Shown here: positions 963-27,000 of the stretch, one piece after another
Layout: every line of letters begins with the position of its first letter
Numbering within the stretch: the stretch's first letter is position 1
Assembly (NCBI RefSeq): GCF_037042905.1
Contig: NC_087245.1
Location: forward strand, 19,718,001 to 19,782,000
Reading direction: 5' to 3'
DNA length: 64,000 nucleotides
Source of the DNA: Lytechinus pictus
Lineage: Eukaryota
Notes under the pieces: model-generated
Told to the model about the DNA's origin: nothing
What the model saw: the letters and a program-made list of their open reading frames with translations, nothing else
Database searches by the model: none
Translations under genes and position numbers: made by a program

Positions 963-1681
963 TTAGGTAAATAACATTTAAGGCTTTCTGCTTTATTACC
1001 TTCACAGACAATCAAAACTTCTCATTTACTAGTTCAAATATGAGTTTCATACAGTGAAATAATATAATGTTCCTCATTTCAATATTTCTTTTGTTTCTTT
1101 TTACTTGATGCAACCTGGGACAATTCAACTCCACTAATTCTCATAGATCATTATAGAACCCTTATGCTATAACAGTACCAGTTTAAAAACATGTCTTTTG
1201 TTTCAAGTTCTATTTTGATAAACATCCTCTGAAGAGGTATTTGTGTCAAATTAAAGTCAAAGGTTCATCAGTTAAACTGAACGGTGAGAATTGAATGTGA
1301 AGCTACTTATTTCTAAAACATTACTACAGAAATTAAAACAAGATTCGTGTTTATAAAATACAAAGTGTTTAACTTTTAATCCAGATAAAATTATACCCGT
1401 AAAAGGCTGTGATCAGCAGGTAACTCCTCAAAGGAGTTTTTCATTGGCTGAATGAACAGATTGTAAATGTATTGTAGTTTTGTAGGGATCAAAGCCGTCC
1501 CCCTTTTTTCTAAAAAAATATAATAAAAATACAATGGATTACATCTTGCCTACAGTTGAAATTACAACACACATTTTGATGTGAGCAGGTACAAGACATG
1601 GAATTGAAAATACTGCAATCATGCATTTAATTAGGAATGCAAGATTTCATTAATCACATTTATTTCTTATGATTATAATAC

Positions 1682-1739
1682 CTGGTAGCTTCATTCCAAG
1701 ACATTGTGATGTAGATCTGGACCAGCCGAACATGGCCAT
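1682..1739 (-). CDS. Possible alternative coding exon of the unidentified minus-strand gene (MAMFGWSRSTSQCLGMKLP-G)
   Basis: Open frame from an ATG at 1739 ends at a phase-1 donor (CAG|gtatt), the same phase as the 4663 donor. No recognisable homology. Confidence 0.25.
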
Positions 1740-4662: not shown

Positions 4663-4816
4663 CTTTAGTTAGGAATGACATGCTACTTCCAGGAGACAAT
4701 GAGCTAGCAAGAGTCAGAGAGTAGTCCAATGTGCCCGCCGATCCATTGGATGAAATGCCTGACATGGCACTGACGCTGGACAAGTAGCGGTCTCCACGAG
4801 ACCGGCGACTCGCCAT
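4663..4816 (-). CDS. First coding exon of an unidentified gene (MASRRSRGDRYLSSVSAMSGISSNGSAGTLDYSLTLASSLSPGSSMSFLTK)
   Basis: Strong acceptor tttctttctctacccttccag| (exon starts 4824), Kozak-like aacaagATGG, donor AAG|gtaagt after 4663 (phase 1). GC/CpG-rich relative to flanks. The gene presumably continues left of the window. Confidence 0.75.
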
Positions 4817-6629
4817 CTTGTTCTCTGGAAGGGTAGAGAAAGAAATGACAACCTAATGTAATATATTTTTAATGAAGCCAATTGCGAGACATTAATGATT
4901 CATCACTACCTTCAAATCTAATTGATTAAAGAAGCATGTTCACACACACAACAAAAGTTTTTACAGTGCATAAAGTCAGCATATTTAGAACATTGGGTGA
5001 AAATTTTCTACATTTTCCATTCAAATCATTCTTCTTTTTCTTTTCTAACAACTGCATATAAAGTTTCTTCTAAGATCAGATCTACTTTTAGACTCACACT
5101 TTTCAAGGTGTGAGAAATAAATATTTAGTAAAAGTTCTCTTAATGCTAAAAATGTATTTTACTTAAAATGTAAGGAAGACCAAAGAGTGTATTGATTCTC
5201 ACCTTTAATTGCAAGTATAAAATATGGCTATTACGTGTATGTACACTCAAATTGATTGGTACAGTATGAACACATCCACTACGGAAGCATGCATGGTACA
5301 TTCTTAGTGAATGAAGATAAATAATATGACAATCTTTCTTGTTTTCTTATCAGAATGTAGACAAGGTATTTGACAATTGGATTAACAAAATACCAGGATC
5401 AAATTTACAAATTAATCTGTCCTTCTACTGTGGGTTGGGCATAATGTCTAGGTCATTGGAAACTCAAGATGATTCTATGCTGGGCCTGGACTTCTGGGGC
5501 ATCTGGACAATGGTGTAATAACAGCTTCAATATCATGTACAATGTTAGATTATAGAATGTGTGTAGAAAATATAAGTGTACCTCACAATGACAAGACAAA
5601 TATCAGTCAATGTTTCTAATAATTTTATAAATGAGGTAAAAGAAAGAAAAATGCTGTGTTTTGGGGAGCAAAAAAAACCAATTCATTTTGATTTCCTACA
5701 TTATTTTCTTCTACATCCAACTGAATGTCCACTTGCAATCTTCTTTGTGACTTACAAAAAAAATAATTGTTCTCTTATTTCAAATAAATTGTGGTATACA
5801 TCTTCTCTTCCTCCTCCCCATCCCTCTTCACCTCCTCCTTCTTATTCTTCTCTTTCTACTTCTCCTTCTCCTACTCCTAAGGTCATATATATACCCACAT
5901 TGACTTTATTTCAAAATGTGCACAATTGTGAAATGTAAAGTAAAGTACGTTTTGTTAGCCTGGATGTGTCTATCAACGACGTTTTGCTGAATCAACTATT
6001 CAGATTTTGTTTAAATGCCTAACAATTTGGTATACACACTAATTTTAGAAAGGAAGTGGATAAGATGAACTGTATTACACTGTTAAACTAGTCAAATTAA
6101 AAGATAAAGGTAGCAGATAAGACTAACAAAATGAAAAGAGGGATGGGATCAAGACTCACGACTCAAGAGGTAATATTGAACACCAAGTTTGCCACTCCCC
6201 CCCCCCCCCAAAAAAAAAAAGGAGATAATAGTTGTAAAATTCATGTGTCTGATCAAGTTTCTAAAGAGCTGTTTTTTCTCTTGGTAAATGCTCTCACATT
6301 AGGATTCACAGTTCTATCAGCCATTCTTTCATTTCCAATTGACTCAACGCATGAGTGCCCTAGTTCAAAACACCATTGATCACCCTCAGCCAAACAAGCT
6401 TGATCTATATTATCAACACATCACTGCAAACTCTTGTAAGATAAAAATATATATATATATTTAGCCAGGACTAGACAGTAGCTCTAGACACATATATCAT
6501 GTTTATTGAAATATTTGTTTAATAAGCAAATCAATTACTTTGAACAAGCCATTCCAAAATAAGTAAATACAGATACCTAAGCCCGAACTCTGTCTTCGGG
6601 TGGGTTAAGCGGGTCCAGGCAGTACCTAC

Positions 6630-7000
6630 CTGTTGACTCAAAACTCTCAGCAGCTAGCGGGATACTTCTTCCAGATCATCTTTTCCGTCTTAACAGAGTC
6701 TCCTTTTATCCAATATTACAGTGAATGTGTCCTTGGTTCCTGCAGAATGTTCAAAATCAACTGGAACTTGTTGAAACTAAAATTATCCTTAGAAAAGTTG
6801 TGCCACTGATTACCACTTGATTCGTGTTCAATGCAATTGAAGCTCTGTCGCGACGTCCGAAATAAAGACTCGATCGATCGCACACCAAAGTACAACTCCT
6901 GCTGTGTGTGTATATTCTTGTGTACGCGATGTGTGTTCAAAAGACTGCTGTTTGTTTTGTGCTGAGAGGTGACTTGATGCTGCTGAACACATGTACATGG
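6630..7000 (-). other. Non-coding first exon (5' UTR) of the same gene; start approximate
   Basis: Donor CAG|gtaggt at 6630/6629 inside a CpG-rich island, upstream of the 4824 acceptor. Confidence 0.55.
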
Positions 7001-7019
7001 AGAGCTGTCAAAAGTTTTG

Positions 7020-7130
7020 GTGGAGTAATAGAGGGGCGTGGTTCCCGTGGTTCGTGGTATCGGAATTGGCGCGCCGCATGGTAATGGCTTCAATTGAGGT
7101 CGAATGACCGCCGTGATTTTGAAAATTGAT
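7020..7130 (-). promoter_or_regulatory. CpG-rich promoter with Sp/KLF-like and E2F-like motifs
   Basis: GGGGCGTGG at 7033-7041 and TTGGCGCGC at 7066-7074, directly upstream of the putative first exon. Confidence 0.45.
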
Positions 7131-7615
7131 TTTTTCTTTTAAATGTCCAATCTTTCCTCCCACAATCCTCTATCCCTGTAATATTATCATCATTATATTT
7201 TGCCTTTGCCGCATATAACTATTTTTGTAATATTGAACATTATTCTGTTTCTCATATACCGGGCTCATATAATGAATGATTTCATTAGATATTTGACGGT
7301 GCATTTTATCTCTCACTCTGTAAGTATTGGACACAGACTGAAGAACTTTGTATTTGAAAATAAAGTCGAACTATGAATTATTTTAAGAAAAAAATATTGC
7401 CTGATTTTCACAATATTTACATAATTGGCATAGTGAATCTCCTTCAGCATTGAGCAACTATTGTTCCTAAAGAAAATTACATGGCTATATAAACAACTTT
7501 GGCCCATGCACTCACTTCGCTTCTTTGTAAAGAGTATATTGAGAACGTCAGCATCCTCTTGTTTAGTTCTACTTCATTGACCAGAAGATTTTTGTAAGTG
7601 AAAAATAGTATTTAA

Positions 7616-8166
7616 AGGACAAGTCCACCCAAACAAAAAGTTGATAGAAAAATCCAACAAGAATAACGCTGAAAATTTCATCAAAATCGGATGTAAAATA
7701 AGAAAGTTATTACATTTTCAAGTTTCGCTTAATTTCACAAAACAGTTATATGCACATTTTGTTCGGTATGCAAATGAGGAGACTGATGACATTATCCACT
7801 CACTATTTCTTTTGTATTTTATTATATGAAATATTCTAATTTTCTTCTCATTGTCAAGTAAAACAATGGTTAATTGTTCCCTGAACATGTGGAACTAACA
7901 TTGCTTAATGTTATATGGTTTGGTCGAGTTGGTCCTTATTGTCATATCTGTAAAAAATGCAATATTTTATCATTCAAACAATAAAGAAATAGTGAGTGAG
8001 GGACATCATCGACTGTCCCATTTGCATGTCACTGAGTTGTACATATCACTATTTTGTGAAAAATAAGTGAAACTTAAAAATGTCATAACTTTCTTATTTT
8101 ACATTCGATTTTGATAACATTTTCAGCGTTATGCTATTTTGATTTTTCTCTATTTATTCTTGACCT
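7616..8166. mobile_element. Kolobok-like MITE
   Basis: TTAA|AGGACAAGTC... start and ...TTGACCT end. Inverted arms (aacgctgaaaatttcatcaaaatcggatgtaaaataagaaagttat / ataactttcttattttacattcgattttgataacattttcagcgtt). A related partial copy lies near 25460-25600. Confidence 0.55.
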
Positions 8167-8364
8167 TAAAGAAATAAGATTTATTACAATCATATTATTA
8201 TTATTATATTATCATAACAATTTCATTTATAGTGATTGTCCCAGTCATAAAATTTGGATCTTCTGTACTCAAGGTGTGAACTTTTTCCATTCCCTGTGAG
8301 CATTCTAGCAAGATTTTCAAAAAGGCAAATCTAGATATATTTTCTCATCAGAGTACAACCACAT

Positions 8365-8562
8365 GGAGAGGGCGATAGCTCTGTCGGTATATAGAGCGGG
8401 GGTCTTCGGATTCCGGTGACCTGGGTTCGATTCCCACTTGATGTGCTAGTGCCCTTTGGTAATATCCTCATTACCAGGTCCCTCGGAGAGGACCTTAAGC
8501 CGTCGGTCCTCTGGTTGCTTGCTTACAAGCATCCATGCTTTCTTAGCAATCAGGTAAAAAAA
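8365..8562 (+). mobile_element. tRNA-derived SINE (family A)
   Basis: A-box-like GATAGCTCTGTCGGT, B box GGGTTCGATTCCC, A-rich end. Closely similar inverted copy at 22376-22576. Confidence 0.85.
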
Positions 8563-9712
8563 ATCATTACCGTTCACAATACATAAAATAATATAATTAT
8601 TACTAATCCATATAAAATCATACCTTAAAATGCAAGAGTGATAAACGTTTGTGTCCATGCTGTCATCGTCGCATTACTAGCATTTTTTTTTTGTTAATGG
8701 CAGGGGCTTATCGATATCATTATGCACATTTCGAGAATTAACATTATAATCGTTCCATTCAATATAAGCACTGTCTCATATTATTATTTAATGTAAAATC
8801 GGACATTTTGATAAGGTGAGAAAGGTAAAAATAAATGCAACTAAATATGGTTTGACTCCTCGTCTATTTTTGCAGAATGAGACCACTTATCAATAACTAC
8901 AATACTTCAGCAAACACATGATCTTCAAAGTTTAATCATTATTCGTGAAGGTTGTAGGTTATAATATCTGAGACTGACACAAAAAATATGCACGCACACA
9001 CACCCATGCATAACAGAAAGAAAGACATGAAGAGCAGAAAAGAAACTTGATAAAAGAAAAAGTTGAAATAAAAGATGAAATAAGGAGAGAAGATAAAGGA
9101 CACATCAAAAAGAGAGAGAAGGGATAAAAAAATAATACAAAAATATAAAAGATAAGAAGGTAGAAAGAAAGCTTTATTAGCATGATTGGCGGACAAACTC
9201 TATTATTTTGTCTTAAGACTTTCCAACAAAGTCTACTACACTACGAACAAATATAAGAATAGAGAGAGGCAGAGGCGGATCCAGAATTTCAGGAAGGGAT
9301 GGAGTTGAAGTTCCATTTTTGACAAGCAAGCAAAAACTTTCTTGTTTACCCCAAAATAACAGCAACATTGAGCACCATTTTACCCCCTATCCCAATATAC
9401 GCAGCATAGGCCTACATGTCGCGTTGTCACAATGAGACTGAAAAGACCTAACCCAATGGCGCCATCTCCGGCTACTGGCACGGAAAGAAGGAAGAATATT
9501 AAACAGAAGAAGAAGAGCGATACTAGTACATCAAATTGTTCGTCTTGTATACTGAACAAATAAGTGTGCATACCCGCGACCTTTCGTTAAAAAAGTTATG
9601 ACTGGAAAGGTCAAAGGGTCAACAAACTTTAATTTGAAGGCATAAATACACTAAAAGTGTTGAGAAAAATGATTTTTTTTTTCTTTTCATAGTCTATGCA
9701 TTTTTATATTTA

Positions 9713-9960
9713 CACTGCAAGAATTCCGGTGTTGATTTAACACCAGCCCGGAATCTATTATTATGTCCACACCAGAGAAGTATTGAAACAACACCAGTTT
9801 GGAATCAAACCAATGCAGTTTTAATACTAATTGGTGTTGTATAAACACCTTTCTGGTGTTAGACCAAAACGAAACTGGTGTTGAGTGTTTAACACTTCTC
9901 TGGTGTGGACATGTATAGATTCCGGGCTGGTGTTAAATCAACACCGGAGTTTTTGCAGTG
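9713..9960. mobile_element. CMC/EnSpm-like MITE
   Basis: CACTGCAA...TTGCAGTG termini, long near-perfect TIRs (ccggtgttgatttaacaccagcccggaatctat), 2-bp TA TSD. Confidence 0.8.
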
Positions 9961-11821
9961 TAGGAATGCCTTATTTAATTGATAAACGGGTAAGAAAAGT
10001 CTAATTTCGGTCATGATATCATTACGGGATCAAAAATAAACACAAATTTTGTGAATTCTTTTCAATTATTTTTATTTCTCATGCACTCGTTTGTGTCTAA
10101 CTTGATATGTCCAGGCAGAATTAGTCTTAATAAAAACTTAACACTTTGATTTCTTCTCTTCACTTTCATGCATTTGGCGACTGGTGAAATGGCTGCCAAA
10201 ATTGACCCAAAATCCTTTTAAAACACTTAATACCCACTATAAAATCATAATAAATGAGCATATCGAAAACTTGTATGCAGTGTACCGGACATGTAAAGAC
10301 ATAGCAGACGACGTTTGCAGACCTCGCGATCACCGTATGACTAGCGGTGCGGAATGTTCCATTGCGGCTTTATGGGGGAAATAGCATTACAGAGGGATAA
10401 AATGTATACACAGATAATGTTTCAGCGTTGATTCGCAATATTTTGAGTCAATTTTCATGAATTATCGTTGTTTGAACATTTAAACATTATAAAATGAAAG
10501 AAATAAGCAAAACTTAATTTTCAGACTTAGCTATGCAGTGGTAAGCTAGGATGCACCCCTCGTATACATAATGGACCCGTCACGAGTGTAGGTTTGCTCT
10601 TCGGACATCACTATCACAAAGAAAATCTCCTCTGATTTGATGATAAAAGTGCCCTATTTCCTTATTAACCAATCTCCATGGTTCTTTCATGAGTATCTGC
10701 CTTACAATGTGCCCTTTATTGTAATCTGGGCGGAAATTCATGATACCACCACCCACCGATGTGACGACATATATAATCCACCCGGGTACTATAAAAATGT
10801 CCCCCAAACCCATTATCCCAATACATATTCCTGACTATGGATGGTTTTGAGTGATTTCAATGTAATAAAGTGCCATATTTCCCACCAATTGAATGTAAAA
10901 AAAAATATGGTCATCTGATAGAAGAAGTTGTTACCATTCATTTCAGGGGGGCGGAAATTCTATCTGAATCAACGCTTGTCCTTGATACACATTTGTTTGT
11001 GAAAAAAGGGTATAATGCAAGGGAATTCTGCGTGTTATAAGGGTGCGCGCGCGCAGCGAGGACCTTCTGTCCGCTAGTTTTCCATATGGAAGAAATGAAC
11101 ATACTCATCAATAAATTGCATAGGTGAAATAATCACCTATACATAACGAGTCTTATAAGCTTTGGCGCGGTTTAACGAAGTGACCGCCTTTGATATAAGT
11201 TGGTTTTTTTATTGTCACATTTTAAGTTTCAGTGTAAGTCTCTGAGTTTCCTTGATTTTGCCACGGAGTGATCGCTTTATTTAATTTCTTTCTTTAATTT
11301 CTTTATTTTGAATTTGAAAAGGAAACTTCTACGGTATACAATAAAAAATATAATTCAGGTAACGGTCATAAATTAAAACACTTGTCAAATCTGTCATTAT
11401 AAATATTTTCAAGTAACGCATTCTGATAAAGAATAGGGAAGGTTTCAGACTGGCTAACAAGTTGTACATGTACATGCTCCTCTTGTGGACAATGGTAACA
11501 ACCTCTTTTAACATATTTCTTCTAAATTTGATTTATCAAATTTTAAAGCTAGTTTGAAACCAAGTAATGTTGTATCATGTTATATTGCTACTTTTTTTTT
11601 TCGAGCAGATCGAATTAAATGTACGCTGATGACTTCTAGTATGCTGATCAGGATGCTGATGCAGATGACTACGAGATTCTCAATTAATTATTACGTGGCG
11701 TAACTACAGGGGGGGGGGGGCGGCACGTGAAGATCGAGGTTTTGGCTGGTGTATTTTTGGTAGGGGTAGCGAAATTTAGCAGGGAAACGGTAATACCCCT
11801 GATAGCAGAAACTGGTAAAAA

Positions 11822-12390
11822 TGACGTCATAATTACGTCAGTTTAACGACGAGTGTCACGTCATTTTGACGTCATAACATGACGTCTTATTGACGGGATC
11901 TTGCACCCGCGAATAACGTCATTATGACGTCGTATATTGACGTCATTATGACGTCTCCAAGAGTGACTACGACGTCTTAATGACGTCTTGGCAACATTTT
12001 TACAACGTTTTCCTGACCAGTATCAAGGGTCAGATTGACGTCGTGTATTGACGTGATTATGACGTCTTTGAGAGTCAACAACGACGTCTTAATGACATCC
12101 GTGCAACGTGTTCCTGACCGGTTTTAGACGTCATATTGATGTAATTATGACGTCTTTAAAAGTCATCTACGACGTCTTAATGACAACTTTGCGACATATT
12201 CCTGACCAGTTTCAGACGTCATATTGATGTAATTATGACGTCTTTATAAGTCAACTACGACGTCTGAATGACGACTTTGCAACATATTGCTGACTAGTAA
12301 TAGACGTCATATTGACGTCGCATATTGAAATGAATATGACGTCTTTTGGAGTCAACTATGATATCTTAACGTATTCTGACGTGATAATGA
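11822..12390. repeat. Left subterminal tandem array (~88-bp unit) rich in GACGTC/TGACGTCA
   Basis: The motif gacgtcatattga recurs at 12127, 12215 and 12303. Confidence 0.85.
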
Positions 12391-13165
12391 CCTAAACATT
12401 AAATTCTACATGCAATGTACATACACACATCACTTCAAAGACCTTGTCATTGAGGATTATCTATATTTGGTGAATACTGAGGTGGTCTGACAATGTCCAG
12501 CATTCCCAGTAACAATATAATGATCCTCCATGCCAAGGCCTTGCATAACTTGTCTCGGTCTCAAGAACATGACCCCCCCCCCCCCGAAAAAGAATATATA
12601 CAAAAATGGAAAACGAAATCAAATACATGTACGCATTTCAATTACGAAATCGTGGCAAATATTCTATTAATAAATAAAAGTTGCATAACATATTACCAGC
12701 AAAAAACTCTAAATAGATTGAAAAAAAAAACACTTTTCTATGAAAATGCAGTATTAGGGTCAAAGGAATGAAATTACAATGTTTGTTATACCAATACATA
12801 CAATTGTACATGTATAAATACACATTAATACATAACAGAGGCATAATGATCTCCAAGAATAAAGCTTTTTCGTTGAAATTGTAATTAAATATACCTTCAA
12901 CTTTAGACAACTATGTAATGTAGGTAAAAATATACTGTATGTAAAAAAAAAATACCCGAGTTGGAATAGTTTCAGGATTTATGGAAGCTCGCATTTGGGT
13001 GAAAGAATCATACATGTACATTAATTCTTATGAAATGTTTGGGTTGTATTACACTATCACTTAGGGCCAGGGGTAAAAGACAGTAGTTGCAGCAAACAAT
13101 TATTTCTTCGGAAAGTCTTTTAAATTAAGGTTAATTGTCAAAATATTGTACATAATCTAGATCTG

Positions 13166-13310
13166 GGACCCGTTGCAGAAAGAGTTGCAATCAATCGCAA
13201 CTCTAAAAATCATGCGCAACTTGATTTTCAACCAATCAACAGCGCGCATTTGGGACTTGCGATTGATTTTTTGACTTGCGTTTAAGCGCAACTCTTTCTG
13301 CAACGGACCC
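13166..13310. mobile_element. PIF/Harbinger-like MITE 1
   Basis: TIRs ggacccgttgcagaaagagttgc / gcaactctttctgcaacggaccc; CTG TSD. Confidence 0.8.
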
Positions 13311-13313
13311 CTG

Positions 13314-13582
13314 GGCCCTGTCTTACAAAGAGTTACGATTGATCCGATCAATCATAACTCTATGGAAATCCATCAGTGTCATAATTTTTTTCTACGAAAA
13401 ATTTGCACAATGTCCTTTGTATGCAAAGAGAAACGCAGCGAATTTTTGAGAAAACAATGAATGCATGAACATACATCATAGCTAGAAAATATTTTGAACA
13501 AACATGCTTAATAGATGTTAACGTTGCTGACCGTCCATAGTTGCGATTGATCGGATCAATCATAACTCTTAAAGACGGGGCC
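13314..13582. mobile_element. PIF/Harbinger-like MITE 2
   Basis: TIRs ggccctgtcttacaaagagttacgattgatccgatcaatc / gattgatcggatcaatcataactcttaaagacggggcc; CTG TSD. Confidence 0.8.
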
Positions 13583-14682
13583 CTGGTAAATTAATGTAAA
13601 CTTGTATCTTTGTAAAATCATGAATTTTTATCTTAAAATCAATAATTCTGATGATCACTAACACAGAAAAGCATATGTGGGACAGGACAGTGTAATATGA
13701 TTGATTTGAAAAATACCCGACATTTGATAGAATTACATGCTTATTTTGCTCATTTCTCAGCAATTACACATTTTCTTCCCGAGCTTTTTGGCACACATCT
13801 TTTATATATACATACACTTTGCTGGTAATTCTGTTGGATTCTGTTCGAACTCATTTTAAGATAGTTACTACTAGAGGTGCGCTATTAACTTAAGGCAACT
13901 ATGTAATGTAGGAAAAAATATACTGTATGTAAAAAAAAAAATACCTGAGTTGCAAAGTTTTCAGGATTTATGGAAGCTTGCATTTGGGTGAAAGAATCAT
14001 GCATCAATAAGTCTGATGAAAATAGTTTGTGGAACTGTTGTATTACACTATCACTTAGAAGGAAAAGACAGTAGTTGCAGCAAACAATTATTTCTTGAGA
14101 AAATCTATAAAATCAAAGTTAATTGTCAATATATTGTACATAATCTACATCTGGTACATTAATGTAAACTTGTATCTTTGTAAAATCATGAATTTTAACT
14201 TAAAATCGATAATTCTGATGATCGCTGTAAACACAGAAAAGCATATGTGGGACAGTGTATTATAATCGATTCGAAAAATACCTGACATTTGATAGAATTA
14301 CATGCTTATTTTGCTCATTTCTCAGCAATTACGCATTTTCTTCCCTACATGTAGCTACGTAGGCTTTTTATGTGAGCTGAGAGATTTCATACCAGATTTC
14401 CTTTGCTTGATAAAGTTCTTATGATAGTCTGTGTATCAGCATAGCATGTGTTCAGTGTTTTGAACCCACTGGAGATTGTGCATCATATCTTTATGTATGG
14501 AAGTCATTTTGCGTCTGCGGTCTCCATGGTTTTTTCAGGATCTATGTGTTGACTAGACCAGTCCCATATTGATATTTTCGTGCTGTGTCACTTTGGAAGG
14601 CCGTCTCTAATTGGTTGACTGGTGAGTTGGCAGATGCACAGCCCATCCCACTTTTCAATTATATCATTACGTAATCTCTAAC

Positions 14683-15305
14683 ATGTCTAAGATATCCACC
14701 AGATCAAGAGGCCGCTTGCACTCGGCTAACGCATGTACACAATCCTCTGCTTCATCATTAACTGGATCTAAACAAAGCCCAGCATATCTAGATCATATTG
14801 ATACAGTCGTTCAAAGAGCGGTGGCCGTGGCAATGGAACGCGAGAGACAAAAACTCAATGATGACATGGATAAGCGCGAAAATAAATTGCGTGAAATTCT
14901 TGATGAAAAGCTCACTAGTCTACACGTTCTTGAAATATCTATCGATACTAAATTGAAGCAACTCCGTGATTTTGAAAAATCGGTTTCTGATAACATGACT
15001 AACACCATAATGCTTTGTCAAATAGGCTTGACCACATCGAGCAGTACTCCTGTCGCAATAATATCCGTATCCGTATGAGATTGTTCGAAATGTAGCAAAG
15101 CAGATTGGTATCGATCTTACTCCATGTGACATTGATCGATCCCATCATCTTTGCCGACCAACTAGCAGTCATGATGTTCAACCCAAAGGATCATACCCCG
15201 GCGTGGCCCTGTAATGCCAACTTAGCAGCTCCACCAATCAATGTGAAATTCACTTCATACAGGCCGAAACAAACGATGATGAAAAATAGAGGAAAATGAA
15301 AATGC
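14683..15305 (+). pseudogene. Frameshifted LINE ORF1 (coiled coil plus RRM-like region, CR1/L2-type); no ORF2 follows
   Basis: Coiled coil (ERERQKLNDDMDKRENKLREILDEKL). Across frameshifts it continues DHIEQYSCRNNIRI, IVRNVAKQIGIDLTPCDIDRSHHL, PPINVKFTSYRPKQTMMKNRGK, matching the EQYSRRNNIRI...DIDRSHRL...PIIVKF pattern of LINE ORF1p. Confidence 0.75.
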
Positions 15306-16468
15306 TCAGGAACAGATGACTGGGTGCAGGCAGGCAAGGCAGTTCAGGTGGGATGAAAATTTATTGGCAGGACACCTTCCGTTTCAAATTACAGCATCTG
15401 CAAAAATAACAGAAGAGGAGAAACATAAAAACTTTTTCTACATAAACTACTTATTAATCTTCATTAAAAACTAGATGGTTTCAATATTAATTTCCAATTT
15501 ATTTTAAATGATTAAAAAACGATGTGGGGTTTGTTACATATTTTATACTTCAAATATTAACATGTTAAGTCAAGTCGGGGGGGGGGGGGGGCATGATGCC
15601 CTCAAGACCTTTAACCATCTCTGTATAAGGAAGGAAATTTTAGAATCAATTTATTTGACACATAAAACATATTATTTTTTTATAATTACAATTTTAATTC
15701 ATGCCTTTTTTATGTGTTTTAAATGGTTATGGGGTAACCAGGACCGAGAATTCGAACTTCGAGGCTGAAATACAGCCATTCCCTATGCCTGATTTGGCTT
15801 AAATTCAGGTCAAGGATCAATTAAATATATATTTTGCAAAAAAAATCTTTACAAATTTTGAGGTGGAATTAGTTTTCTGGCATCGCGAGATCGACCAATG
15901 CAAAATTTTATTAGCGCCAATTTACCATCTAAACTTGTCATTGAAATTAGAACATCCAAACCGATCTAGTACCAGTACTAGCACAATGAATCAATCAGCT
16001 ATGCATGTGCACCAATTCTGTATTTCTTGCATACGTACGTCACTCGAGTTAAAGTTCATGTCATTGCGTTATATAGCGTGGGAATTGTAAGAAAGTGATC
16101 CTTCAAAATTTTTACCTTCCAACAATTAACATTTTTAAAGCCTTTGTATGCATTTAGAGTACAAAAGCTTACAAATTGGACAAATTAAATGTTTGCCCCA
16201 AAATTATTGTGGGAAGGGTGGATTTTCTAGGGAAATCCATCTTAGTGTACAAAGTTCTACAGGCAACAGAGACTTGTCTAGGCTCCGTGAATGAAAATAC
16301 AATGAAAAAATATCACAGAGTCCTCGAAGTACAGTCAGGACCATTAACAGATTATAAGGTGCCCCGAGTTTGTGCACACCCAAATCTGCGTGATTCTGAT
16401 AATAGAGATTCCCAATGATCCCCCCCCCGAAAAAAAGGCTTTACATCTGAAATAGCCTTCTAACTTAC

Positions 16469-16652
16469 CTACTGCCCGATGCCTCCTATCATGTAGGGCA
16501 GCAACGAAGGATCTCCACTCCTGGCATCCAGCGATTCTGGGCCTTCTTCTGGAAACTCCCCCAGGCCAGGTCATATTCACTGACTTCATCTCCTCCTCAA
16601 CTCCTCATGTGTGACACCGAGACAGGTGGTTTTGTGTCTCCCTCTCTTTCTC
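16469..16652 (-). pseudogene. RTE-like LINE C-terminal fragment bounded by splice sites
   Basis: Translates EEEMKSVNMTW...EWRSFVAALHDRRH, resembling RTE ORF C-termini. Acceptor tttgacatttcag| at 16652 and donor TAG|gtaagt at 16469. Confidence 0.55.
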
Positions 16653-16751
16653 CTGAAATGTCAAACAGATCTATTCATTAAAAATCTTACTCAAAATGGT
16701 GCTTTTGGTAGAAAAATAATGAATATAGGGCATTTCGTGTGACGGCCTTAA

Positions 16752-17533
16752 CCCTTATTAAACTGGGGGGGGGGGGGTCAATTTGACCCCCCCCCCTCAA
16801 CAAATTTCATCACTACGCTGTCGCGCAAAAAATTTTGATCGCGCCGCTCACTGACTTTTTACTTTCAAGTCTCGCGCAAATTTTGAGACCAAATTTGTGA
16901 CGCCCGGGTACGCGGTTACGACATTACGCAACATTATGTAAGTGCATGTCAGACCCAAAATTGCTCATAAACATGATTTCATGTACAAATCCAATGCAAA
17001 TTGTGTATTTAGCCAAAATTCATAAATTTATCATTATTTCTACTTTTACTGATTAAACTTAATTAATTTTGCCTTGTTTATGATTAGAATTAAGTCTAGA
17101 ACGATTTCCATCGAAAATACAATAAAAAACAAAATGTAAAAAAACAAAGAAATACATGATTTAAAATTAAAAAAAATACATAAGAAATCGGTCTTGGTAC
17201 CAGATTTTTTTTCATTCACAATTGTTAGGAATGCTATAAAGAATATTTTCACCCAAAAAATAGCATTCTAGGAGCTTTATTTAGTGAATCAGAGCAAAAA
17301 GTATGATCTCATGAATAAATTAGCATACCGGTAATTAATTCATATATAAAATAAAAAATATGAATTCAGTGAAATTTACCAATGCAACTACGTAGATTAC
17401 GTCATTCTCTACCATCATGCAAATTTTCGTTGTGATCGTGCAATCCACGGCCGAGATCTTATAAGGGGGGGGGGGCAATAATACCCCCCCCCCCAGGAAT
17501 AACAAGAATCAAAATACCCCGGTAGATTTAGGA
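16752..17533. mobile_element. piggyBac-like non-autonomous element
   Basis: TTAA|CCCTTATTAAACTGGGG ... CCCCGGTAGATTTAGGA|TTAA, with poly-G/poly-C subterminal runs at both ends. Confidence 0.6.
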
Positions 17534-18105
17534 TTAAAAAAATTGTCAGTACGGTATATCATCGAGGATCTACATACTAATAGTACCGTACATGTAGATC
17601 TGGTACAGTTACATAAACTGAACTTTGTGAAATCTTGAAATCTACACTGAAAAATGTTCAAACTGAAGATCACCAACACAGATAAGAGCACGTGGGACAG
17701 TTATTATTGCTCTGATTAATGTCGGCCCGACGCTTGCCTTGGCTCGAGTTGACCCGAATCCTGTGCTTTTTTTGCTTATTTCGCAGCAATTACAAAATTT
17801 CTTCCAGAATCCTTTGGCACATACGGTATATTATTTATAAATATAGACAGACACTTTGGTGGTCATTTCATTGGATTCTGTACGAACTCATTTTGATATC
17901 GTTACCACAACTGGCATTTACCTTAAAAGTGTGCACTGTGTCTGTGCAGACTTGGGCCCTGAGCCCACCAGCGCAGCCTGTCCTATTCAGCATGCCGGCG
18001 CTCGGGGCAGCCACCCCGGCCGGGCAGTGTCAGTGCACGAAATCTAAAGCCAAAGGCAAGCCGCGCTCCGAAAAGAAAATCTTAGAAGATGGTTATCTAA
18101 CTTAC

Positions 18106-18330
18106 TGTTTGGTCTCCTGCGAATGCCTTCGAAGTCGTTATCCGAATCTTAATCGTGTTCTTAAAGTAGTAGAACTATTATTAACGGCCATCTTCGTAGC
18201 ACTTAATTCTCGATCCAAAATTAGGCTGCAACATTTAACGGCGAAAAACGGGAGCATTCCTTTTTCAAATTAAATGGTTGCGACTGCGCGCGCCAGTTGC
18301 ATGCAGTGCAGCGCGCATGCGCAGGCTCGG
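18106..18330 (-). promoter_or_regulatory. CpG-rich promoter and first exon inside the CMC element
   Basis: NRF1-type palindrome GCGCATGCGC at 18313-18322, YY1-type AAGATGGCC (rc 18186-18194), donor ACA|gtaagt at 18106/18105. Confidence 0.5.
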
Positions 18331-18719
18331 ATCATGAATTTTTTATAGGGGGTGAGCCCGGGGGGCGTGCATGGGGGGGGGGGGGGGGTGAGCTAACTAG
18401 ATAGGGGGTTTGCATGACACCGGGGCATGACACCACTTGCGAAAAAAAAAGTTTTAAAATAGATACAAACTTCTTTGACATATAAAGCTTCCTCTTGTTT
18501 GGTTTGGTTGGCAACCAGTTAAGAAATGATTATTTTTGCCACTGCTTTTGAAACTTTTTTCTTTGAAGAATTATATACTTTACCTAAAATAAAAAAAATT
18601 TTAGTTTTACTTTTCCTTTTATAAGTAGAAATAGCCTTGCTAACATGGCAAGGTTGAAAAAATGGCAAAATAGTATGTGGCTTTGAAATTAAACTTGTAA
18701 ATTTCCTCGTCGTTGATTG

Positions 18720-19090
18720 GTAAAATTTGATGTCATAATCACGTCGTAATGTGGTCATATGAAAACGCAAATTTCTTTGTCGTTGTTTGGTAAATAAATG
18801 ATGTCATAATCACGTCATAATGTGGTCATATAAAAATGCAAATTCATTTGTTGCAGATTGGTCGATAAATGACGTCGTAATCACGTCATAATCTGGTCAT
18901 ATAAGCGAGCAAATTTACTTGTCGTAAATTGGTCAGTAAATGACGTCGAAATCACGTCATAATCTGGTCAAATAAAAATGCAAATGAAAGTTGCCATTCT
19001 AAGTCGTCAAAATGACGTCGTAAGAACGTCATAAATACGACGACATGACGAGTATTACCACTTTACGATCAGTTAATGACGTCATTACGA
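18720..19090. repeat. Right subterminal tandem array (71-bp unit)
   Basis: ga(t/c)gtc...atcacgtc recurs at 18729, 18800, 18871 and 18942. Confidence 0.85.
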
Positions 19091-19398
19091 CCGTGTCTGC
19101 TATCAGGGACAATGTCATCGGACTATGTATTTTTATTGATGTACAAAATACAAGTATCATACCTTTTTTCTTACTTTTCCCAAACATTTCTAAAATAATA
19201 TTCAAAATTCATTCTTGGAGTCTTCATTAACCATACTATTGAACAAACGAAAAAAAAATCAACTAATCAACTCTACAATCTACCAAAAATTCCTCCTCGG
19301 CGCGGCCTAAAATCTGCCTTCAGAGTTATCAATAGACATTGATAACTCTGGCTGCCTTGTGTTGCTGCCCTCTCTACGTTTGTACCGGTACGTACTAT

Positions 19399-20844
19399 CA
19401 GGGTTGCCAACTGGCCTTTTTTCCGGCCAGATTCCCGAAATCTGGCCGTAAAAAAAGTAGCTTGGCCGTGAAAAAAAAAATTTCACGGCCAAAGAAATTT
19501 GGCCGTATTCTGGCCGTAAAACAGAAATCTTGGCCGTGAGTTTTCATTTCTGGCCTTTTTCATAATCAGATAGAAAATTTGATCAGAAAATCACTTTAAA
19601 TAGGTCTATGTATACCATAGAGATGTAGTTAGTATACATCTCTATGATGTATATACAAATGCAGTCAGGTCTTTCTGTGGGTCTACGGCATATACATAGA
19701 GATAGCGTAATTAGTATACATCTCTAGCTATGGGCATACACTAACTTATTAGTGCATACATGCATTGCATGTCTGTCTACGCATGACCGCAATCACAGCA
19801 TGCGTTCTCAAAACGCGCGATTAGTTGCGTGTGGTGGAGGGGATTCTTATTTTTATTTGGCAACCAGTCACCAACATCATATTTTCGCCATCATATATAT
19901 TATATTATTAACGTTTGTTTTCTTTAAAAAAAGTAATTGAATAAAGTAAAATTCAAATATTTAGTTCTTTTTCCTTTTTATTTTTTCTTTTTCTTTTCTA
20001 CGTCTTTTTTTCTCTCTTCTTTTTTTTATAGGATATCTACTAGGATTTAAAATCGAGTAGGAGTGTCTCACAATTTAAAATCAGGGCTTTTACTAAAAAT
20101 ATGTGATAAAAATATGCCTACTAGTATGCAAGTAGGATGACAGAGAAAGAAATGAGGAAAATCACAGCTCCAACAGGGGCGGGTCCAGCTTATCTGAAGG
20201 CTGTACATGTTTGGTTAGTCATGACCATATAAAGATGTAATCGCAAAATAAACAGTGTTTGGCTATATAATGTGATTAAAAGTAATCAAAAGCAGCACAA
20301 CCTTTACATATTACGTTTTCTATTTTTTTTCTGTTTTCTTCTTTCTCAATACTTCCTCAACTATTTTTTTTTCTCTCTCTCTCTTGTAATTTTTTTGTCG
20401 TGAGTTTGAAAATCCCCCATGAAGCTTGGCATATGATTATTGGCAAAACAAAACAAAACAAAAAAGCTCAATCTTTTAAATGCTCCTCCAATATAGCTGC
20501 ATGGGTAGTAACTGATGAACTAGATCGAAATGCATGGTGCTTTCATCGGCCGTTTTCCTCGAGTCGATAGTCACCAATGTACGTACTGACTTTGCGAACT
20601 ATTCTCCGCTCCAGCACCCGTTCCGCACGGTTTACATGAGATCTAACTTTTTTTAAAGAATGCAGGCTCTATTAGGGAAGCACATAGCATCATTAATTGA
20701 GTATAGGGGTATGTCTAATTTTTTTCCTAAAGTAGATAAAATTTGGCCGTGAAATTTGGCCGTGAAAAAAAATTGTTTGGCCGAATTTGGCCGCAAAATC
20801 TGTTGAGTTTGGCCGTGAAGACTAGCGACGATCTGGCAACTATA
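19399..20844. mobile_element. hAT-like non-autonomous element abutting the LAS1L start
   Basis: CAGGGTTGCCAAC left terminus, degenerate ...CTGGCAACTATA right terminus, TTGGCCGT subterminal repeats at both ends. No clean TSD. Confidence 0.55.
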
Positions 20845-20910
20845 GCTATATATTGCATATTGGAGCAAAACACATGCGCGTCTGCAAAGAGGAGAAAATT
20901 AACCACAAAA

Positions 20911-21041
20911 ATGCCTAAGAAATACACTTTCATACCATGGAGAACTAAAGATGAGTTTGAAAGGATTTATCACAAACTATTTCAAGGAGATCCTGGAGAG
21001 AAAAAGACAGCTATTGATAGGATATCTTCATGGAATTCTAG
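20911..21041 (+). CDS. LAS1L: LAS1L exon 1
   Basis: MPKKYTFIPWRTKDEFERIYHKLF...IDRISSWNSR; donor AG|gtaaac. Confidence 0.9.
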
Positions 21042-24000
21042 GTAAACAACCTGTAGTGGTAAACTTGTTGAGACGAAGTCGAAGCCGACCGAGAGCTATA
21101 CAGTACCGTATACCGGTACTACAATGACGTGCTCTCAGACTCGGGGAACTCCCCGGGTTCTAACGTGGAGTCGACCGTGCAAAACGAGGGAGACACGGGT
21201 AGCCTGGAGGCTTCTACTACTGAGTAAAAAATCATTTACTAACGTATGCTTACTCTCAACGAAGCCTGGAATTGCTTCCCATACATCTGCACGTACCGCC
21301 GGCGGTACCGGCCCAAAAACCCGAAACTTTTGCCCCCGAGAATGGAGATTTCTACTTCTAAAAAAGATCTAACAAAGTTGGCCCTAAAAGTAAAAAATAA
21401 TGTACATGGCCATGGTTTCATGGGATAAAACTTCATTTCCGCCATTTCTACGCTATCGATTTTATATTTAAACAAGAATTCATCGAAAAAATTAGAAAAA
21501 TATTATGAAAAGACGGAAGAGACTTGCCCGATGTTTACGCCGTCATCTTGTTTCCTATTCATTCCTATTTCCTTCTAAAAGATCTAGCCCTAAAATTTTT
21601 AGGGCTAGATCTTTTAGAAGGAAAGTAGAAATATCGGGGGCGAAAGTTTCTGGTTTTTGGCCGGTACGTGCAGATGTATGGGAAACAATTCCAGGCTTCG
21701 TTGAGAGTAAGCATACGTTAGTAAATGACTTTTACTCTCTAGAAGACTCCAGGCTACGGGACTGGGGTGGATTGGGTCTCACTAGTAATCTTAATAAAAT
21801 GTGGAAACAGAAATTATGCACTTACCACGATGATTATATGGATGAAGGTCTATCGTGACACAAATCAGTGACAAGTGACATCGAGGCACAGACTGGAACC
21901 TCAAAAAACAAAATATAGCCTCGGTCTCGATCGGCCATTTTCATGATTTTGTTTTGAATTTTGAAAGGAGAGGTAACACGAAAGAACTTTTCGGGTTTTT
22001 TTTAGGTTCCAGTCTGTGCTTCCTCAAGTTGGTGCCAAAGGTGCTTGTCTTGTGCTCATGCAATCCAATTTATTATGCCAATGAATTTTGTGAGCTCGTC
22101 ACTCCATCTCAATTTTTGACTACCCCGATTTTGTGATCCTAGCCATGGTCTCCATTCTGTGATGCGTTTGGTCCACCTATTATCATGTGATCTTGCAAGG
22201 TGGCCAGCCCATCTTCCATTTCATTTATTTAATTGCTTTGATTATGTCTATTACTCTAGTCTGGCTCCTAATCCATTGTATGGTTTTCCTGTCACGTTTT
22301 GATATCCGTAGCATTATACGTTCCATACTGTGTTGAGTGGTTTTTAATTTCTGTTCCATTTTCTTTGTTACCGAGGTTGTTTTACCTGACTGCTAAGAAA
22401 GCACGAATGCCTGTGAGCAAGCAACCAGTGGACCAACGGCTTAAGGTCCTCTCCGAGGGACCTGGTAATGAGGATAAATGCCTTACCAAAGGGCACTAGC
22501 GCACCACTTGGGAATCGAACCCGGGTCACCGGAATCCGAAACCCCCGCTCTACCGACTGAGCTATCGCGCCTCCCCTAATAGACCATGTTTCAGAACCAT
22601 AGGTCATTGCCGGTATAACGAATTGATTAAAGACTTTTCTCTTAAGGCAAATTGGCATATTGCTCTTCATAATGTCATTGAAATTCCGCAAAGCAATCCA
22701 TCCAGCTCTTGTCCTCATTTTAACTTCTTCCAGTTGTTCATGATCCATTCTGACATGTTGCCCAAGGTAGATATAATGATAATGATCTACTCTCTCGATT
22801 TCAGAATTGTCCATTATGATTCTTTGCTCTGTAGCAAATTTGTTGAACATTACTTTTGTTTTTTTCATGTTGATGTATTATTTGTATTATTGTTGTTTTA
22901 TTGCACTGTGATAGTTATATTCTCAACTTACATTCGCAATATGATTGACTGAATGAAGGTCAACATTGATACCTTGTGTGAAAGCTGCATTATAACACAG
23001 TTGCACCTTGATGTCAGTTTGAAAGTAAAAACCTTCTGTTTCTCTTTCTTTCCTTTTCAATTAATATGTCTTCAGGTACAAGAAGTTACCAGTAGCCATA
23101 ATATGTACAAAAAACCTTGTAGAACTCCAACTTGGAATGCCTGCACAGCAAAATGGAAACACAAGCACATTTATAATGGCATGCACACTTGCCATTACTA
23201 GGTAGGCATTGCAAGATTTCATTTTTTCTTACATCAGAGTGTGGTTCACATATTTTTTTATGAATGTTTCTTTGGTCTTTTGATACTGATATCAAATATG
23301 TTTAGAATAAATTGAATGCATAACTTTATGTCAAAGTACAATCTTTATAAAATGCCCATAGTCCAATTTTAGATTTTGTGTAATGCAAACAATTAAAATT
23401 ACCTTGACACATTACAGAATGTTTTTTTTTAATTGAAGGTTTGTCAATCTGATGACTGAGGAAAAGCAGAAATTTGGAAGAGGTATGCCTGTTCATGAGG
23501 TTGCCATGACAGTAAGTTTTTATGCTTTAATTGGTTTAGATAATGTTTAACAGCTCCTATTCACACAAATTCAGAATATATGAAGCATATTTTTTTAGCA
23601 TATGCTCCCTGTTTGTTTTTCAGTATTGGTCCTAATATTTTTTAAGACTTTTTGCCCACAAAACTTTAGTAATTGATTGTTTTCCATGTATGAAGCAAAC
23701 TAAAATATGTGGAAATAATTCTGGACAATTTGGGCTTTGTCAGCTAAAAATAACATTTACAAAATTAGATATGATTACCAAATAATGAATTTAACTGATT
23801 TATGAAACAATAATTATTTTACTTACATGTACATCACTAGATTGGCCTTCCAAAGTGGATTGTTGATATTCGTCATCAAGGAACTCATGGACACATGCCT
23901 AAACATGCCATCCTAGAGAGTGCTCTTAGGTTCAGTCTAGATTGGTTGAAGGAAACCTTCTGGGAGGCACAGATCAAGGAGATGTGTGCAGATAGGATCG

Positions 24001-27000
24001 TTCAAGAAGGAGACTTTGACTTACAGACTATAGGTAAGTACTATGCTTAATATTTATGCATGTATTTAATTTTGCAGATAAAGGACAATTTTCAAATTCT
24101 CTCATACCTATACTAAATGAAAAACATGTGGCAATAACATTTTGATTCACGAAGCAAGCTAAATCACATAATATGCGGGGATCCATGAAACGCTTGGGCT
24201 GCTTTCAGTTTCTACTTTTTTAAAACCATAGAATTTTGGTTTTAAAAAGATATCAGATTGAGATTAGAGTTGTGCCCTAAAATGCTAGAAAATATAGGTT
24301 TTGGGATGCAATTTTTAAGAACCTTTTTCATTGTGATATCACTTCAGTTATTTTAAAACCATCAGTTCCAATAATTTGATGGTTTGGACATTCATTGAGT
24401 AATCTCAAGTTGACTTGTACAGAAAATGTTGGTACCTAAGAGTTAAGACATAGATTTTTAAAATCTTTCCTTTTATTATTTTAACATTGCTTTATATCAT
24501 TTTAAATTCTTTATTTTCAATCTTGCAGAAAAGCTCAAAGGAATCTTGAGTGACTACATGGATTGCATGGGGAGTTCAAGCATTGTAAGTAGAAGGCAGA
24601 TGGACATGTTCATTATGCATTGTGTAGAATTTCTAAAGATATGTTAGTTTCAATAATCTTTATATGAGGTCAATTTTACACAAGCAGAGCTTTAAATATT
24701 TAATTAACTCTCTAAAATAGTATCGGGTACTAAATATTTAATTAACTCTCTAAAATAGTATCGGGTACCTGAAAAATCATATAGTTAGGCTGCACAATTA
24801 ATTTCTTGCTCTACAACAAAAATTCTTTCTGGTTATGCAAATCCATGGTTGGAAGGTGCAATAGAGATGCAGGTGGCATACATAATAACTGATTTCTTAT
24901 ACCTTAGGTGTGCGAACTGTGGACAAGGTCTGGTCTAGTCAACTTTGCTGATGAATAGCTCCTTTTCATAGCTAAAGTCATTGTTTCATGAATAGTTTTA
25001 TTGCATAATTTATTGTAAACAATGCATCAGATTCTTATGCTGTCTATTCCAAGTAGGTATTGCCAATTGATCTCAAATTTACATACTCTTAGTTAACAGA
25101 ATACATATTCTTTCAATGACTGACATTATGGCACAAGGTATCATTACCATGAAAATAAAAATAAATCATTGCTTTTATTTACAGAGGAAGAATGATGTGG
25201 AGATGCTTTTGATAATCGATGCTATATTTATTGTGTTATTTTTATGTAGCTTGTAAATGGTCGTCCACATCACAGGGAAAGAGAGGTCTTGCAGAAACTG
25301 AACAAGCCACTGAGGAATCATCCTTCCAAGTAAGAATGCTGCTAAATGTGTTGTCCCTGATTAAAATAAGTATGTCATCAGGGACATACTACTTGAAAAA
25401 ATTCCTTTAAGTGGTAGATAACTGAATGAATCAATGTTGCATATCTCAGGTCAATTATAAGGTCAGCCCCCCCCCCAAAAAAAAAAAAGGAAGTTGATTT
25501 GAATGAATAAAGAAAACTCAAATGAGCATAATGCTGAGCATTTCAGTAAAATCAAAAGTGAAATTAAAAACAAAAGTTATGACATTTTAAATTTGAGTTT
25601 ATATTTCACAAAACATTTATTTGCAGCAAATAGCATAGATGGTCAATCATTTGTTGCATCCTCCTCCGTCATTTCACACTCCCTCTCTCCCCTTCTCATT
25701 CATGGTTTCATTGATGGCCATCTGGAATTCAACGGCCTTTCTCAGAATGTTATCAACATCCATGAACACATGTCTATACTAAGGTGCTCCATGATTGTTA
25801 AGTGATAATGTTATTATTTTTTCAATTAAATCAGGAAATACCTTGCCTATCTTCTCACCCAAGATGGATACTTGGTTCCAACTCCTGAACAAGAAAGAGC
25901 TCTTGGCATCAGCGATGGTAAGAATAGGGGTTTAGGATTTTTTTGTTTTTTTGTTGTTGTTGTAAACTCTCAATCTCACTCATGATGTATATTGCAGTGA
26001 CAATCATTTGACTACATTTTAGGGTCACAATGTCAAAGGTCACAGAGATCATTAGAAAAATTTTAATTTTATGTTGGATATATTTCTGATCTGACAATAG
26101 TGGAGGCATAGATTTTGACTGCACAGCCAATAATTCATCTAATTCATTAACTGCTCCTGCGGCTTGACACGTATCTACACTCTAATGATAAGTTATTACT
26201 AGTATTGTCATACTAGAAATGTAATTTTTTGGAATGCTTCTCATATAACATCAACCCTGAAACAGATTTGAAATGCATGTTTCTAATGAAAAAAAAGATT
26301 GTTTATTTTATTTTATAACCACATCATTCTTTTTTCATGTTTTACATGTGTCATTTCATATTGATACTTTAGAATCACTGTTATAGTAGCAATTTTTCTG
26401 CATGTTTTAAGTAAGAAAAATTGAATGTGGAAAAAACAATTGAAGTTATTTGAAAATTGAATTGAACTCTTGGTTATAATTTGATTTTTCCATGGAAGGA
26501 GTGACTTCCCCGCAGGATGACAACCTCCCTGGATCTCTTGTGGCATTGTGGAAACCACTCCTTGACTTCACCGTGTCCTGTGGTCTAGAGCATCTTATCA
26601 TGGAATCCATCATCAACCTGCTCTCCCGCTTCACCTCCGGGAATCCAGTAGAAGCCAAGTCGGGACCAATCGTGAGATACCTCCTCGGTTGGGCCAAACA
26701 CCTCATCAAGAGAAACGGCATTACTCAAAGATCAGGTAGGGAAGTATTTCATTTATCTTGGTGATTTGCAATTTGCTCTCAGCCAATCAGATGCATTGAT
26801 TTCAGTAGCTTATCACAGTTTTCAATCCAATCATTGACAAGTTGCATCATGAACGGGGGGGGGGGGGGTGTTTCTAAGTATGACTTGGAGTCGCACTAAT
26901 ATGCCTAGTTGCGTGCGGTATAAAAGACATCACCACATTGGTCAGATCATGGCAAATGGACGCTCACTACTGAGTATTGATTAATAAAATTGCACGTTGC

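Follow-up and report, generated by a model that had tools for sequence, protein, structure and literature searches.

Within a 64,000-nucleotide window of animal DNA (Lytechinus pictus contig NC_087245.1, positions 19,718,001 to 19,782,000; about 36% GC; "the window" below means this whole stretch) lies a 7,312-bp DNA transposon whose family gives rise to minus-strand RNA. We think it reasonably probable that this transposon is a transposase-less cut-and-paste element of a CACTA/TRC-like kind, likely amplified recently to tens of copies, which likely kept the promoter of its ancestral gene and uses it, in some samples, to make a non-coding RNA that is likely for the most part unspliced. An initial annotation of the same DNA had proposed a mobile, self-promoted cassette producing a spliced three-exon RNA antisense to a long interspersed nuclear element (LINE). 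Its observation was partly confirmed and its interpretation partly supported: mobility (the interior appears to be multi-copy) and self-promotion (the RNA starts inside the element in one run) held up, and the spliced three-exon form has so far found no support.

Minus-strand RNA starts within the element

We used two ribosomal RNA-depleted stranded runs from one study (X23 and X24), of which about 6 in 100 reads were used, and calibrated the strands by exon 1 of the neighbouring LAS1L-like gene (8.67 and 8.57 versus 0.27 and 0). Four runs, including X5 and X11 described below, were aligned in one pass on 1200-21190 at 88% likeness, and high-copy repeats swamped the resulting tables of joints and loose ends. 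Reads can be assigned to the element family only, and may derive from any near-identical copy. Two features summarise the signal:

11800-18300, minus strand: approximate span of the family's RNA in X23, from low-repeat bins between 16540 and 11205 (depth 20.2 in 15874-16540, 16 in 15207-15873, 13.1 in 14540-15206, 3.85 in 11872-12538 and 1.28 in 11205-11871)
18186-18330, minus strand: CpG-rich promoter candidate with an NRF1-type palindrome and a YY1-type motif, the likely RNA start region; X23 shows a minus-strand excess in this bin and none upstream

At the upstream end (18542-19208) minus-strand depth in X23 was 0.13. Since that end is silent, transcription starts inside the element; the minus-strand RNA of the family thus begins within the element in one of the two runs. 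The corresponding six bins in X24, taken from 18542-19208 down to 11205-11871, gave 0.41, 1.7, 1.38, 0, 0 and 0. The repeat-rich bin at 17875-18541 had minus-strand depths of 26.3 in X23 versus 14.2 in X24 (opposite strand, 26.3 versus 27.1), an excess that fits a start near 18200-18300, at a candidate rather than a mapped site. Read-through from the LAS1L promoter was excluded, as minus-strand depth does not exceed 0.93 in 18542-21190. Near the left end, 4-5 of 11-12 reads came from a more diverged copy, and X23 also has a plus-strand depth of 4.35 in 15874-16540, of unexplained source. In sea-urchin embryos, according to PMC8615465, transcription of repeats is common and depends on stage.

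The CpG-rich promoter candidate of the initial annotation was found with all its motifs in place. The palindrome, which we take to be an NRF1 motif, is perfect, lies at 18312-18323, is the sole one in the 64 kb and appeared in 0 of 100 shuffles; the YY1-type motif at 18194-18186 follows a common pattern with 6 matches in the window. Between 17950 and 18349 each 200 nt holds 13-15 CpG, where the window averages 4.2. At family level, and in one of the two runs, the RNA has the properties of a long non-coding RNA (lncRNA), being longer than 200 nt, transcribed and without a substantial open reading frame (ORF); as the initial annotation had said, no such frame crosses the proposed exons, the longest ATG-started frame in the joined exons being 70 aa.

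The element probably belongs to a family of near-identical copies

Run X5, taken by guess to be DNA, had a depth of 4.2-15.8 in five low-repeat interior bins of the element, compared to a mean of 0.08 over ten non-repeat flank bins (LAS1L exon included), a difference of about 100-fold; bins of high-copy repeats, the one that spans the left end (0.24) and the two at 5202-6535 (54 and 25.6) do not enter this comparison. The element interior accounts for 7 of the 8 listed X5 contigs, which over 2,627 letters show 12 differences and one 10-letter gap (99.5% identical). Because the interior is both this uniform and this much deeper than the flanks, the element is probably a young family of tens of near-identical copies, a rough figure that follows from a per-copy depth of roughly 0.1-0.3, estimated from flanks and repeats. 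One X5 contig (14877-15589) runs through the LINE relic and the proposed last acceptor into proposed intron 2, and this arrangement is therefore common to copies. Coverage holes in X5 prove no absence.

In organism C (X11), flank pieces were 91-97% identical at a depth of about 40, and the element ends and the LINE relic were about 89-90% identical, the pattern expected of older paralogues. X11 is the one organism-C run of small share drawn on here, and the 8 organism-A contig runs that match 0.44-0.52 of the words form no part of the evidence. Conservation of splice sites among copies is powerless as a test at 99.5% identity.

Ends, architecture and class

The inverted ends start at 11797 and 19108, form a 34-bp inverted repeat with an 85% match and read CCC...GGG at the termini. 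AC stands on both outer sides (11795-11796 and 19109-19110) as a 2-bp repeat, a match expected about once in 16 by chance and seen without an empty site. The 7.3-kb DNA transposon of the initial annotation is borne out by these ends and their flanking repeat. Its parts are:

11797-19108, no strand assigned: whole non-autonomous DNA transposon, bounded by the ends and the AC repeat; X5 depth steps within one 667-nt bin of each end
11797-11830, plus strand: left terminal inverted repeat (TIR), 34 nt, 85% match to the right arm
11916-12315, no strand assigned: left subterminal array, an 88-bp unit repeated 3.1 times and rich in the palindrome GACGTC
12899-14345, no strand assigned: repeat block that is duplicated internally and contains two small inverted-repeat elements (13165-13311 and 13310-13586)
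16763-17908, no strand assigned: high-copy repeats in proposed intron 1, of which 16763-17496 resembles a miniature inverted-repeat transposable element (MITE) and 17592-17908 resembles 13583-14345; X11 depth 170,000-361,000
18699-18985, no strand assigned: right subterminal array, a 71-bp unit repeated 4.1 times, not transcribed (RNA depth in bin 18542-19208 of 0.13 and 0.41)
19076-19108, minus strand: right TIR, 5' end relative to the transcript, with a 73% relative in contig L001

No transposase or helper family was found in the 67 of 79 stop-to-stop frames and the 6 further frames scanned, the 6 remaining frames lying at or across the element ends. As far as its sequence tells, the element is not an autonomous CACTA/TRC member, because neither a Transposase_21 ORF nor any other transposase family was found among the scanned frames, and its placement in the superfamily would follow from the ends only. 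PMC1636069 gives animal CACTA-related (TRC) elements a CCC core and 2-bp duplications, and the first 11 letters of the element end equal the Tribolium TIR printed there at 9 of 11 positions. A metagenome scan for the end returned 4 matches, comprising 1 true relative (the right-end relative in L001), another TIR-like end whose similarity goes no further (contig L002) and 2 GC-rich chance matches, while the 10 matches of a viral scan had no similarity past the pattern and Rfam gave 0 matches in 1-22000.

Both metagenome contigs hold something further. L001 carries at 881-1380 a MITE 70% similar to 16822-17320 of the window, within proposed intron 1; as place and orientation differ between the two, the L001 copy appears from the alignment to be probably an independent insertion. 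L002, a contig of 28% GC, has another CCC-ended, GACGTC-rich terminus at 2005 (minus strand), possibly a CACTA-like end in a different animal.

Splice signals and the proposed exons

The spliced transcript of the initial annotation consisted of the following parts, ending in RNA that runs antisense across the LINE relic:

18106-18330, minus strand: proposed exon 1, with a moderate predicted donor and a 17-codon ATG frame
16469-16652, minus strand: proposed exon 2, likely a 5'-truncated retro-insertion, sense to the RNA, with a 7-bp flanking repeat
15315-15397, minus strand: 83 nt after a strong acceptor, not part of the LINE ORF1, holding an AATAAA (15365-15360) that is not the main 3' end
14683-15314, plus strand: LINE ORF1-like relic covering residues 1-220 of some 278, with a frameshift and a truncated 3' end, antisense to the RNA (match to protein P0001, E 5e-59)

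All of the donors, acceptors and the AATAAA are present where they had been placed. Scored with our own rough matrices, the exon 1 donor (ACA|GTAAGT after 18106) ranked 86th among 3,185 minus-strand GT sites and the exon 2 acceptor at 16652 ranked 110th among 3,220 AG sites, while the donor after 16469 ranked 6th and the acceptor at 15397 ranked 11th; by these scores, the latter two, placed so high among about 3,200 sites, look strong and the former two middling. With thresholds chosen after the fact, the observed scores let 1 of 200 shuffles match the whole chain of signals; relaxing them by 1.5 bits let through 19 of 200, and by 3 bits 110 of 200. The same three settings matched 2, 41 and 153 of 298 other real stretches. 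The chain thus appears only modestly beyond chance. The AATAAA motif is itself common, with 98 on the minus strand of the window.

Neither proposed junction (18106>16652 or 16469>15397) was found among the 15 listed of 892 joints. Were the RNA fully spliced with a long last exon, the two intron-2 bins should have depths of 3.8 and 1.4; they measured 16 and 20.2, and 'intron 2' is no shallower than 'exon 3'. Depth also continues beyond the AATAAA, being 16 beside 15253 and averaging 13.1 in 14540-15206. Given this depth of intron 2, the reads beyond the AATAAA and the absence of the junctions from the listed joints, we lean towards an RNA that is mostly unspliced, and the spliced exons of the initial annotation did not find support in this comparison.

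A probable retro-insertion and a LINE relic

Proposed exon 2 is bracketed by a 7-bp direct repeat, ATTTCAG (16659-16653 and 16453-16447). The upstream copy supplies the AG of the exon 2 acceptor, the downstream copy lies 15 nt past the exon end, and the donor sits in the 3' tail of the insert. Because the piece has a flanking repeat of its own, it is likely, judging from its letters, a nested short retro-insertion with a target-site repeat and not captured cargo; the description of the element's fragments as captured is probably wrong for this one. We take the piece to be RTE-like from a motif likeness. Database searches with its one open frame gave no support for RTE, the matches to P0005 and P0006 looking spurious, so that the earlier label of an RTE-LINE C-terminal fragment leans on that likeness and on the flanking repeat. 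A literature search for an RTE tail acting as a splice donor found nothing relevant.

The LINE ORF1 relic on the plus strand fared better. It is 76% identical to its best intact relative (P0001) over 106 aa and then, after a frameshift, 47% over 112 aa, and it matches residues 1-220 of four intact proteins of 274-279 aa. P0001 resembles the Baculo_FP_2nd and L1 RBD-like (Transposase_22) clusters (0.92-0.93), and a coiled coil followed by a conserved ORF1 region was found together with homology to ORF1-like proteins; Pfam gave no match at the curated cut-off. The LINE is kept only as its 5' end, whereas LINE insertions are usually 5'-truncated, and a later deletion is therefore suggested.

That the element's RNA is antisense to this ORF1 was supported, in that X23 minus-strand reads at 14557 and 14576 match the element's letters (0 of 13 and 0 of 17 differ). 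Plus-strand reads at 14557-14576 (5-7 in X23, 12 in X24) come from diverged LINE copies. Together, the two sets of reads mean that RNA antisense to an expressed LINE family exists. The transposon fragments do not share one orientation relative to the RNA, the ORF1 relic being antisense and the RTE-like piece sense.

Interpretation and alternatives

A history that would account for these observations begins with an ancestral copy into which a LINE, several MITEs and a short retro-insertion of RTE-like kind had inserted. Its coding core would then have been lost by deletion, leaving the LINE only as its 5' end, and the deleted element would have been copied whole by transposase acting in trans. 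The NRF1/CpG stretch just inside the right subterminal array would be the native promoter, and the idea, raised in the initial annotation, that the RNA marks the decayed transcription unit of a lost transposase gene fits best with this history. The retro-insertion may have inserted immediately behind an acceptor-like AG that was already there, its own tail supplying the donor-like site, which would make 'exon 2' a by-product, and the antisense overlap with the LINE would be incidental, with no selected function.

Several points count against this interpretation. The native promoter is inferred from this element by itself. X5 is labelled organism B and not A, and two flank bins (5202-6535) have X5 depths of 54 and 25.6 despite a single-copy look in X11, an excess possibly due to low-complexity matches. 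The Repbase rule for non-autonomous elements, as given in PMC4455052, asks for the same target-site duplication (TSD) length and at most one mismatch in positions 1-11 versus a known member, and the element end has 2 mismatches to the Tribolium TIR, the single close member compared. The CMCT clade has CA..TG termini in most cases and TSDs of 2-5 bp according to PMC12730594; the TSD length here fits, and the termini are CC..GG. We use the label 'CACTA/TRC-like' because the end has one mismatch more than the Repbase rule allows and because its termini differ from those of most CMCT elements. As to splicing, with 15 of 892 joints listed, a junction backed by as many as about 55 reads could have escaped the listing, so a spliced minority is possible; total RNA contains nascent introns, and intron coverage is thus compatible with a spliced mature form; and a short spliced RNA ending near 15340 at a depth of about 185 would reproduce the measured 16 and 20.2.

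These last points bear on the alternative put forward by the initial annotation, that the transposon carries a stable spliced three-exon non-coding RNA serving as antisense RNA, or as a precursor of Piwi-interacting RNA (piRNA), against a LINE family. We regard this as unlikely. The promoter-like motifs and the transcription are real, the chain of splice signals at its observed scores is as rare as described, the short spliced form fits two bin means, and the plus-strand LINE reads of both runs provide a possible expressed target. However, a short spliced form implies about 130 junction reads, which should outrank the X23 joints that were listed with 55-82 reads, and the proposed junctions are not among them; it is disfavoured for this reason, presuming that the joint listing was ranked by support. 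Beyond this, the reads run past the AATAAA, the chain turns up in 19 of 200 shuffles on relaxation by 1.5 bits, the exon 2 signals are explained by the insertion site and the tail, and sense LINE reads occur in X23 (5-7) and also in X24 (12), in numbers too small to show silencing.

It is doubtful that the promoter and exon 1 are a captured 5' piece of a host gene, of the Pack-TIR type, rather than the transposon's own. Housekeeping promoters typically carry motifs of the NRF1 and YY1 type and are rich in CpG. Multicopy Pack-TIRs tend, according to PMC8277862, to capture GC-rich regions, and many are transcribed. Against capture, no parent locus was identified and the exon-1 frames have no protein match. 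Additionally, maize En/Spm has its promoter near one end and repeats in its subterminal regions, and the site here, just inside the subterminal array, is the position expected of a native promoter from that element.

A bolder form of the antisense idea is that the family is a portable silencing cassette, in which a young family spreads tens of copies of a tissue-specific promoter and about 0.8 kb of antisense LINE 5' untranslated region (UTR) and ORF1, supplying piRNA precursors against another parasite, with an exon made in one step by a retro-insertion whose target-site repeat is the acceptor and whose tail is the donor. We hold this to be a very speculative proposal with little probability. 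A literature search for captured antisense or piRNA transposons listed no matching case, though this falls short of showing that none exists. Should the element indeed yield piRNAs against the LINE family that is expressed, it would offer a piRNA source that is dispersed, spreads by itself and is tractable as a model, and would bear on the origin of new piRNA clusters.

It is highly improbable that the exons are an alternative 5' UTR of the minus-strand host gene downstream of the element (exons at about 7000-6630 and 4824-4663). This gene has exon-like stretches at 4824-4663 and one ending at 6630, lies on the same strand, has strong splice sites at 6629, 4824 and 4662, and is expressed in both runs, with joints mostly hidden. 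X24 nonetheless expresses the host exons (2.31 and 5.55) without element RNA (0 in 14540-15206), past the left end X23 depth is down to 1.28 and 0.4, and 6635-6998, which organism C shares at 97% identity, comes with a promoter-like stretch of its own. Transcription of this gene probably starts from a separate promoter near 7000-7100, so the element exons are unlikely as its main 5' UTR.

Equally remote is the notion that X5 is a different species sharing the element by recent horizontal transfer, or that the RNA is read-through from one copy in a host intron: the organism label of X5, the presence of RNA in one of two runs only and reads that cannot be assigned to a copy would suit it, but X5 also has this genome's other repeats (among them 10493-11013, which lies outside the element and is 98.8% identical) as well as a contig of 49 kb, which is what a mixed sample poor in host DNA should give, and read-through would cover the upstream end, which is silent.

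Other features of the window

The LAS1L-like gene starts at 20911 on the plus strand and occupies 20911-28100 (Pfam Las1, E 1.7e-5), the right end of the element lying 1.8 kb upstream of its start codon. In the downstream host gene, about 6630-7100 is likely a first exon with a promoter-like stretch near 7000-7100, followed by an ATG exon for a serine-rich N-terminus; no homologue of its exon at 4816-4664 was found. An exon at 39900-40200 on the minus strand resembles what is presumably the DNA primase small subunit PRIM1, and a CpG-rich stretch at 62300-62900, the strongest in the window, may be the promoter of that exon's gene.

Among repeats, 52900-61130 has three 1.41-kb units running into a 338/264-bp tandem array of related subunits with strong strand skew, and has the look of a larger repeat from which a satellite is growing. 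A repeat resembling a short interspersed nuclear element occurs in two copies 87% alike, of which that at 8365-8562 is heavily transcribed (depth about 4,600 at 8462 in X23) and that at 22377-22576 interrupts a retrotransposon relic at 22000-22880. A 1.7-kb inverted-repeat element at 49578-51305 has arms filled with (ATT)n-like sequence.

Comparison with known systems

In the likely case, the element is a well-formed but ordinary representative of animal CACTA-like elements that are non-autonomous and transcribed. It carries a caution, in that family-level RNA of such elements can be annotated as a locus-specific lncRNA, and it places a mobile, sample-specific promoter 1.8 kb upstream of the LAS1L-like gene, with a second gene lying about 5 kb downstream of that promoter.

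SmTRC1 of Schistosoma mansoni (PMC1636069) shares with the element a CCC terminal core, a 2-bp flanking repeat, a probable multi-copy state and transcribed internally deleted copies, truncated SmTRC1 copies being reported as transcribed without a transposase ORF. The element here, however, is without a transposase or helper ORF, has an interior of LINE and MITE debris, and is the one of the two for which splicing is not shown. Maize En/Spm (treated in the background of PMC1636069) and its non-autonomous derivatives likewise have one transcription unit from near one end and subterminal repeat arrays at both ends, whereas the present element has CCC and not CACTA ends, a 2-bp repeat and no TnpA or TnpD coding sequence.

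Animal Pack-TIRs (PMC8277862) and plant Pack-CACTA elements (PMC13317346), the latter of which can feed small-RNA silencing, are likewise multi-copy TIR elements with a foreign, transcribed interior. Here, by contrast, what can be identified of the interior derives from transposons, one piece or more carries an insertion repeat of its own, and a parent locus in the host is not known. Lastly, torimochi (PMC9946225), an expanding transposon that constitutes a young piRNA cluster, is similarly mobile, multi-copy and transcribed in a cell-type-specific manner, and can hold other elements; torimochi, however, is an intact gypsy long terminal repeat element with demonstrated piRNAs, whereas the element described here is a DNA transposon known from DNA and total RNA.

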